Shown here: positions 54,713-54,793 of the stretch, in pieces
How positions within the stretch are numbered: the stretch's first letter is position 1
How the letters are laid out: every line of letters begins with the position of its first letter
Source: Escherichia coli
Lineage (GTDB): Bacteria > Pseudomonadota > Gammaproteobacteria > Enterobacterales > Enterobacteriaceae
NCBI RefSeq assembly: GCF_003018235.1
Contig: NZ_CP027437.1
Length of the DNA: 64,000 bases
Reading direction: 5' to 3' (one strand)
Notes under the pieces: model-generated
Database searches by the model: none
What the model saw: the letters and a program-made list of their open reading frames with translations, nothing else
What the model was told of the DNA's origin: nothing
Position numbers and translations under genes: made by a program

Positions 54713-54793
54713 GTGTAAGACACAACATAAAACAACAGTGTCTTACACGTCAACCCTTTAAAATAGTTTTTTTTCGTGTATATTGTCTTACAC
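54713..54793. promoter_or_regulatory. operator-like repeats (GTGTAAGACAC / GTGTCTTACAC x2) in a divergent intergenic region
   Basis: GTGTAAGACAC (54713-54723) and its reverse complement GTGTCTTACAC (54738-54748) form an inverted repeat with a 14-bp spacer; a third copy TGTCTTACAC (54784-54793) overlaps a TATATT -10-like hexamer. Confidence 0.55.

Follow-up and report, generated by a model that had tools for sequence, protein, structure and literature searches.

A candidate repressor-operator cassette with a predicted ribbon-helix-helix protein in a phage satellite of Escherichia coli

How does a chromosomal island that encodes its own replication and capsid genes keep them silent, when the only gene facing them across their promoter encodes a very small protein? 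This question is raised by a 64,000-nucleotide stretch of Escherichia coli DNA (contig NZ_CP027437.1 of assembly GCF_003018235.1; hereafter the window), in which three 11-bp repeats, O1 to O3, lie between a leftward operon headed by an Icd-like gene and a rightward gene for a 61-amino-acid (aa) protein of the YlcI/YnfO family (hereafter ylcI). Sequence comparison and structure modelling lead us to consider it likely that O1 to O3 are operators of this adjacent protein, a predicted ribbon-helix-helix (RHH) dimer that would repress the leftward promoter, P_L, and regulate its own promoter, P_R. The sites, predicted promoters and gene are as follows.

54713-54723: operator-like site O1, GTGTAAGACAC; adjoins the -10 hexamer of P_L and spans the predicted P_L start at about 54717
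54738-54748: operator-like site O2, GTGTCTTACAC, the exact reverse complement of O1, 14 bp away; in the P_L spacer, with 1 nt shared with the -35 hexamer
54783-54793: operator-like site O3, TTGTCTTACAC, in the orientation of O2 and 45 bp from it; on the -10 hexamer and predicted start (about 54791) of the ylcI promoter
54753-54724, minus strand: predicted leftward promoter P_L; -35 TTGACG (54753-54748), 18-bp spacer, -10 TATGTT (54729-54724)
54757-54784, plus strand: predicted promoter P_R of ylcI, directed rightward; weak -35 TTTAAA within a T-rich tract, 16-bp spacer, -10 TATATT
54815-55000, plus strand: ylcI, proposed repressor gene; ATG at 54815, Shine-Dalgarno sequence GAGGGG at 54803-54808

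Three sites that change in concert with one small protein

An earlier note, made from the letters of the window, had described an inverted pair of repeats with a 14-bp gap and a third copy over a -10-like hexamer, and its coordinates and sequences are correct. O3 has the same base as O2 at 10 of 11 positions and shares 2 nt with the -10-like TATATT (54779-54784), and the internal form of every site in the window is GTGT-NNN-ACAC. As statistics within the window these repeats are only moderate evidence. With at most one mismatch, O1 to O3 are the only matches in 64 kb (three, against 0.69 expected), and 3 of 100 shuffles held three or more such matches, none of them clustered within 81 bp; with at most two mismatches there was no excess elsewhere in the 64-kb window (9 matches against 11.9 expected).

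Comparison with other islands is decisive. In four other E. coli islands carrying ylcI and icd, alignment placed the sites at three fixed positions with differing sequences: one island has GTGTGGCCCAC twice together with TGTCCCCCAC, and another has GTGTGTTTCA, TGAAACACAC and TGAAACACAC. Fixed positions with a changing core were also found in Superficieibacter, Serratia, Lelliottia, Enterobacter and Pseudocitrobacter, giving six genera overall. We took advantage of this framework and searched viral contigs with the pattern CACGTCAA-N23-TGTATANTG-N5-CAC, in which the operator core is left free. The search returned 112 stretches and performed far better than a peptide-pattern scan of species genomes, which yielded 6 loci only. 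The usable set comprised 119 loci, 109 of them derived from the pattern, which does not impose the 5' halves of the sites, their central five bases or any part of O1.

In 100 of these 119 loci, O1 read directly or inverted agrees with O2 at all 11 positions, and in 94 loci O3 agrees with O2 at 10 of 10; O2 and O3 lie 45 bp apart. The loci fall into seven operator classes that correspond one-to-one, with zero exceptions, to the motif formed by residues 10-16 of the protein.

SQS[VL]TAR: operator core GTGTAAGACAC
SQALKAR: operator core GTGTGGCCCAC
SQK[VL]QAR: operator core GTGGACTCCAC
SQLTTVR: operator core GTGTGTTTCA
SKKLEAR: operator core GTGTCAGCCAC
SQALAAR and SQAVAAR: degenerate operator centres

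Two further classes, which the DNA pattern never retrieved and which served as an out-of-sample test, bring the total to nine. Proteins with SQMTTVR, from Enterobacter, face GGTGTATGTCA, TGAAATACAC and TGAAATACAC, and those with SLQVSVR, from Hafnia, face three copies of GTGAACACCAC; in both, O2 and O3 keep the offsets from the ATG that they have in the window (-76/-77 and -31). That the positions stay fixed while the sequences change in concert argues that the sites are real operators. The promoter elements behave similarly: a TAnnnT -10 hexamer lies 17-18 bp past the P_L -35 in 50 of 51 distinct versions, and the motif GTGTATAYTG of the P_R region is kept in loci retrieved independently of the DNA pattern.

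Among 55 distinct proteins, mutual information with operator class is highest at column 12 (0.83 of the class entropy), followed by column 14 (0.72). Both columns are constant within each class, and Ser10 and Arg16 are invariant. The degenerate centres in the classes with Ala12 and Ala14 are as expected if side chains 12 and 14 read the central bases. We infer from these sequences that residues 12 and 14 set operator specificity at sites of the general form GTG-N5-CAC.

The protein itself belongs to NCBIfam family NF041551 (DUF3950), matching over residues 9-50 with 65.3 bits against a cut-off of 30. Its predicted structure consists of a strand (residues 10-18) and two helices (19-28 and from 35 onward) joined by a turn of G-x-S/T/N type at G32-E33-S34; in 46 sequences, Glu33 is invariant and Ser34 nearly so. 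Modelled as a single-chain tandem, the protein pairs strands 10-18 and 80-88 in an antiparallel ribbon, with no other strands and a core pLDDT (predicted local distance difference test) of about 90, and an RHH dimer is thus the predicted fold. Positions 12, 14 and 16 line up by strand alignment with Gln9, Asn11 and Arg13 of Arc, which we take from the Arc-operator structure to be its base-contacting residues. Database searches with the 61-aa protein gave no RHH match in Pfam (a spurious SspO match only), no match at E<=10 in a profile search against PDB sequences, and no match for the model in Foldseek against PDB. In some relatives, such as that at L004 6273-6578 of the SQLTTVR class, the protein reaches about 100 aa through a C-terminal extension past the RHH domain, possibly an oligomerization domain as in Mnt.

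The sites and the protein also move together between islands. The SCU-111 island (L123) is 98.7% identical to that of the window, and DNA divergence between the two is confined to a single segment.

54650-55450: proposed specificity cassette, comprising the SL2 hairpin (see below), O1 to O3, ylcI, the small open reading frame (ORF) downstream and a non-coding block

Within it, the YlcI proteins are 68% identical and the operators are of type T1 in the window and T2 in SCU-111, whereas identity is 96.7-100% for the remaining 13 proteins of the island (100% for AlpA, RepA and the capsid protein). A second natural swap is seen between L002 and L003, which show 94-100% identity in the sequences flanking a cassette of about 300 bp. 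Moreover, the same N-termini of the first leftward gene, and the same variants of the hairpin in its leader, were found with up to four operator classes; this gene and its leader hairpin appear from these pairings to recombine freely among the classes. On this basis we propose that the operators and the N-terminal two thirds of ylcI travel together as an exchangeable 'immunity' specificity cassette of about 0.3-0.8 kb.

Proposed control of the leftward operon and rival explanations

The leader of the leftward operon harbours a further candidate control element.

54613-54697, plus strand: candidate cis-antisense RNA or structured element, with stem-loop SL1 (54615-54650), GC-rich stem-loop SL2 (54651-54685) and a U-rich tail

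This plus-strand element is exactly antisense to the 5' untranslated region, Shine-Dalgarno sequence and start codon of the icd-like gene, and in most sequence types the first hairpin carries the anti-Shine-Dalgarno sequence in its loop. The plus strand of 54612-54700 folds into two hairpins (-41.1 kcal/mol, z = -5.69) and is the more stable strand in 51 of 51 distinct versions, with means of -34.8 versus -21.4 kcal/mol. RNAalifold found 19 pairs, 13 of them compensated, in a set of 22 representatives that covered at least five sequence types. The SL2 hairpin is conserved with 13 pairs, 9 compensated, and in 40 of 41 versions its G-U pairs make the plus strand the more stable one. Transcription from a candidate extended -10 at 54600-54608 (TGATATGAT), itself within a coding region, would begin at the bases complementary to the ATG. 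We rejected the hairpin as a leader structure or terminator of the minus strand, given the plus-strand bias and a minus strand without a U-tract. Rfam returned no family in this region at gathering or permissive thresholds, the C4, isrK and sar-type models included. The fold and its position suggest that the element is a second, RNA layer of control directed against the icd leader.

In the mechanism that we propose, the beta-ribbon of a YlcI dimer would bind each of the three sites. Two of these, O1 and O2, flank the -10 of P_L and adjoin its -35; dimers bound there would occlude that promoter, their positions pointing to repression rather than activation, and the leftward icd-like, replication and capsid operon would thereby be kept shut in the resting island. 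A dimer on O3, over the -10 and start of P_R, would limit the synthesis of YlcI itself, and the plus-strand antisense RNA would add its second layer at the icd leader. Upon induction by a helper phage, transcription of alpA would read through the cassette, override or extinguish the repressor and enter the leftward operon; for the stretch from alpA to P_L, no terminator was predicted on the minus strand.

Several observations weigh against this reading. Promoter prediction, which the earlier note had put forward as a check, does place P_L and P_R back to back on the sites, but a consensus scan of the window is by itself not above chance (2 sites against 2.3 expected). In 109 of the 119 loci the search pattern itself demanded the final CAC of O2 and of O3, together with the -35 and -10 cores. 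The spacing between O1 and O2 is not constant, being 22, 23 or 25 bp, a recognizable O1 is missing in locus L119, and the SKRIDVR class lacks sites altogether, its gene standing second, after an Arc-like gene, with no promoter to itself. Between 25 and 100 bp separate the operators from the co-varying codons, and linkage alone would give some association; the argument rests on the concerted change of three sites and on the recombination breakpoints on both sides.

The genetics of related islands set further bounds. EcCICFT073 (L127 6195-6774, in E. coli CFT073), which we recognized by its capsid gene c1499 and decoration gene c1500, carries the SQALKAR/GTGTGGCCCAC cassette. In this island, over-expression of AlpA alone leads to excision and replication, and deletion of alpA abolishes induction (PMC6092414); EcCIEDL933 is likewise alpA-dependent (10.1101/2022.09.08.507074). 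It follows that YlcI is not an insurmountable block, that lost repression is not the sole requirement for induction and that the YlcI module cannot be the only control. Since a single regulator is encoded, the module is not by itself a two-repressor bistable switch. The picture of an immunity or lysis-lysogeny-type switch drawn by the earlier note needs qualifying, as the element is a phage satellite rather than a phage and has one regulator, of predicted Arc/Mnt-like RHH type instead of the helix-turn-helix type of Cro and CI. Its small repressor with three operators in a divergent immunity-type region gains in silico support from the co-variation, the cassette swaps and the predicted RHH fold, and its check on conservation in homologous islands found the architecture kept and the sequences changing in concert, which leaves the idea unrefuted.

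A broader proposal is more tentative, and we would call it possible rather than probable. The RHH cassette, whether of YlcI type or of the Arc-like type described below, may together with the antisense RNA of the icd leader constitute the missing repression or immunity layer of Gram-negative phage-inducible chromosomal islands (PICIs) and capsid-forming PICIs (cf-PICIs), EcCICFT073 included. Its interchangeable specificities might then define heteroimmune groups, and AlpA-driven convergent read-through might silence ylcI, enter the replication operon and commit the island.

The protein might, on the other hand, bind these sites without being a maintenance repressor, acting like Arc or Cro after induction to moderate P_L or shut it down, or mainly as a factor of immunity or exclusion between satellites, directed at incoming islands of its own class. 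Such a role fits the finding that in the cassette-bearing EcCICFT073 AlpA is both required for induction and enough to bring it about (PMC6092414). A moderating function is known for Arc of P22 (PMC11016777), and selection for heteroimmunity would fit both the cassette swaps and the many specificity classes. P_R is, however, predicted to stand alone and to be autoregulated, and shows no obvious need for induction, while the positions of O1 and O2 are those from which a repressor in the resting state would block RNA polymerase; we regard this alternative as rather unlikely. It is clearly improbable, in our judgement, that the small protein, as an RHH antitoxin or a regulator of accessory or defence genes, controls only its own small operon and that O1 and O2 do not serve the leftward operon: the downstream ORF is variable or absent, PADLOC, NCBIfam and PHROG gave no toxin matches, and it is the conserved elements of P_L, not P_R, that hold two of the three sites. 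A toxin-antitoxin reading was rejected, as there is no conserved partner gene.

Binding of the sites by AlpA, by another island protein, or by a regulator of the helper or a host factor is highly improbable, as is an origin of the repeats as iterons, attachment sites, packaging sites or chance. AlpA is known to bind DNA and to activate such islands (PMC6092414), yet AlpA, Int, the Icd-like protein, RepA and all other island proteins are 96.7-100% identical across two islands with different operators, and the first gene and its hairpin are independent of operator class. We rejected AlpA and the Icd-like protein as binders, their sequences not following the operator class. No phage among 50,697 genomes has the protein or the region. 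The position on promoter elements and the concerted change in nine classes exclude chance, and are unlike iterons or attachment sites. Binding by the adjacent RHH protein, with repression of P_L, is the reading that we prefer.

Relation to known systems

The overall design is close to that of the immI region of phage P22, where small RHH repressors act on operators over close divergent promoters and an antisense RNA is directed against a ribosome-binding region (PMC11016777, PMC2629481). The present locus shares a predicted RHH fold and sites placed on the predicted P_L and P_R; its candidate antisense element would resemble sar in function. It differs in having one repressor rather than two, three separate 11-bp sites and a setting in an AlpA-dependent satellite, and its operon consists of icd, replication and capsid genes rather than a demonstrated antirepressor gene, no Ant domain having been found in family scans. 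Sequence homology to Arc or Mnt was undetected by Pfam or by the profile search of PDB sequences. By analogy, the design is P22 immI-like and at the same time like a lambdoid cassette, with a single regulator and outside the Arc and Mnt sequence families.

With OR1 to OR3 of phage lambda the locus has in common three related sites between and over divergent promoters, one of them for autoregulation of the repressor gene, and an exchangeable immunity cassette. Exchangeable cassettes of the lambda type make elements heteroimmune. Unlike lambda, the protein here is of RHH rather than helix-turn-helix type, there is neither a Cro-like competitor nor a cleavable C-terminal domain, and the sites are spaced 25 and 45 bp apart. 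The Stl proteins, master repressors of staphylococcal pathogenicity islands (SaPIs) and Gram-positive PICIs, are large helix-turn-helix proteins that are inactivated by binding helper-phage proteins. Nothing at the present locus points to such an anti-repressor partner, and Gram-negative PICIs need the activator AlpA; what is shared with Stl (Rpr) is the arrangement of a satellite regulator divergent from a replication and packaging operon (PMC6092414).

As in immI of phage P1 (c4 RNA-icd-ant) and the CI system of P4, an icd-like gene heads the regulated operon, and a leader-directed RNA is a plausible second layer. The C4 and CI RNAs are processed from the same-sense transcript, whereas the element described here is on the opposite strand and has no C4 or isrK match in Rfam. 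Immunity RNAs have been reported in the same zone of some Gram-negative PICIs (PMC10111431).

Within its own family the protein can be compared with YlcI of the K-12 prophage DLP12 and YnfO of Qin. All belong to the same NCBIfam family (DUF3950), and K-12 YlcI shares the pattern of strand, helix, G-x-S/N turn and helix. Unlike ylcI of the window, the K-12 gene (L126 5252-5835) stands beside cos and nohD of a lambdoid prophage and has no upstream GTG-N5-CAC triplet; the YlcI family may comprise RHH proteins with differing targets. No literature on the function of YlcI, YnfO or DUF3950 was found. The present analysis supplies this DUF-type family with a predicted fold and a predicted DNA target. 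The plasmid RHH repressors omega and CopG offer a further comparison. Omega of pSM19035 binds contiguous 7-bp heptads, unlike the three separated 11-bp sites found here, and the genetic context differs.

Gram-negative PICIs spread genes for virulence, defence and resistance. Their control has been an acknowledged gap: the founding paper calls the global repressor 'unclear' and the difference between Gram-positive and Gram-negative induction strategies a 'mystery' (PMC6092414), and He 2025 describes the gene downstream of alpA as variable and 'of unknown function' (10.1101/2025.02.11.637232). We found no description of a YlcI-operator module in the literature on PICI regulation. Because the module occurs in EcCICFT073 and in islands of cf-PICI type, where deletions and reporters exist, the hypothesis is directly testable, and the at least nine protein-operator pairs could provide a natural set of candidate orthogonal small repressors.

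Host island and distribution of the cassette

The host island spans about 10.3 kb at the tRNA-Pro gene proL, in the yejM-yejO interval. Its minus-strand order is integrase, a small ORF, alpA and then the leftward operon, and its plus strand carries the 61-aa gene and a 47-aa ORF only.

57449-56190, minus strand: integrase; with the tRNA-Pro attachment site at 57650-57726, the right end of the island
55478-55684, minus strand: alpA, 68 aa; PHROG excisionase/regulator families; points toward the cassette, convergent with ylcI
54615-54412, minus strand: Icd-like gene, 67 aa, first of the leftward operon; NF033153, 60.7 bits
47621-54419, minus strand: remainder of the leftward operon: orf93, a DUF4222-like gene, a RepA-family helicase (53828-52428), orf86, a tyrosine recombinase (51994-50981), a PerC/ANR-like gene, orf75, a ClpP-protease/major-capsid fusion (50065-48170) and orf93b
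55004-55147, plus strand: 47-aa hydrophobic ORF after ylcI, a variable accessory gene of the cassette
55296-55321 and 55419-55446, plus strand: two hairpins resembling intrinsic terminators, which would stop the rightward transcript ahead of alpA

On gene content the host element is a Gram-negative PICI-type phage satellite, an assignment that follows from the integrase at its attachment site, alpA, the RepA-family helicase, the capsid fusion, the size of about 10.3 kb and the PICI gene organization. The same organization is found in Gram-negative PICIs (PMC6092414, PMC10111431). The 631-aa fusion of a ClpP-like prohead protease and a major capsid protein (48170-50065, minus strand) occurs here in a 10-kb island without portal, terminase or connector genes, and judged by its genes this content matches neither the classical PICI nor the cf-PICI set. 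The XerC-like tyrosine recombinase (337 aa, 50981-51994, minus strand) is flanked by orf86 and the PerC-like gene. The SCU-111 island has it too, but it looks like an insertion, as the otherwise similar L124 and L125 lack it. A 353-aa minus-strand ORF (54412-55473) running across the switch region was dismissed as spurious, its real part being the last 67 codons, which are the Icd-like gene.

Downstream of ylcI, the 47-aa ORF had no family matches in NCBIfam, PHROG or PADLOC, nor did the other cassette proteins in PADLOC, and in other islands its position holds unrelated small ORFs of 57-75 aa or nothing. The non-coding block at 55190-55450 contains the two terminator-like hairpins and several short direct repeats, and is 93-100% conserved in 755 E. 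coli genomes including EcCICFT073. The rightward transcript may have its 3' end in this block, which may also shield alpA; the part at 55190-55330 was rejected as a structured RNA, as it folds no better than shuffles (z = -0.94).

The cassette extends to islands of other types. SQLTTVR-class islands beside abgR carry major-capsid, head-decoration and small-terminase genes, from which content, rather than from comparison with EcCIEDL933, we take them to be of cf-PICI type. Three switch-bearing islands (L001-L003, in E. coli 06-00048, OkiPb01709 and EC416) lie inside a prophage large-terminase gene, and L003 has IS1414 just after ylcI. Such an insertion is the helper-embedded PICI configuration of Tommasini et al. 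2023. A few plasmid-annotated records carry the protein or the region. Neither was found in the 50,697 phage genomes, which rules out a simple shared phage module.

Some islands that lack ylcI have a different RHH gene at the switch position. L125 (6988-7226, E. coli OkiPb01682), which has the backbone of the window and no annotated ylcI, contains an unannotated gene for a 64-aa Arc-like RHH protein in the same place, where the palindromes AGGTGTACACCT and AGGTGTACACAT flank its variant of P_L (TTGACA-18-TATGTT). The ATG of the Arc-like gene falls inside the second palindrome, and its place within the overlap of operator and -35 suggests a leaderless mRNA. The protein aligns in register to the YlcI profile in hhalign, but weakly, and has a weak Pfam match to HicB; the gene strings in the supplement of Tommasini et al. 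likewise show '-DUF3950' or '-HicB' at the switch position. L130 (2778-2994) too has an unannotated Arc-like RHH gene with palindromic operators of its own at this position. From their layout, these islands with an Arc-like gene and separate palindromes represent a convergent design.

Annotation at the switch position is affected accordingly, and we flag unannotated RHH genes and mis-called ORFs in RefSeq records. At the Arc-like locus, RefSeq has a frameshifted hypothetical pseudogene on the opposite strand. In EcCICFT073 the annotated 157-aa 'Icd-like' coding sequence (6195-6668) crosses the hairpin and the operators and overlaps the ylcI start, so that its own start is probably over-extended. 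Beyond the island, the chromosomal RNA features of the window are MicF (22352-22445), two naRNA4 repeats (18501-18691) and the L25 leader (61442-61467).

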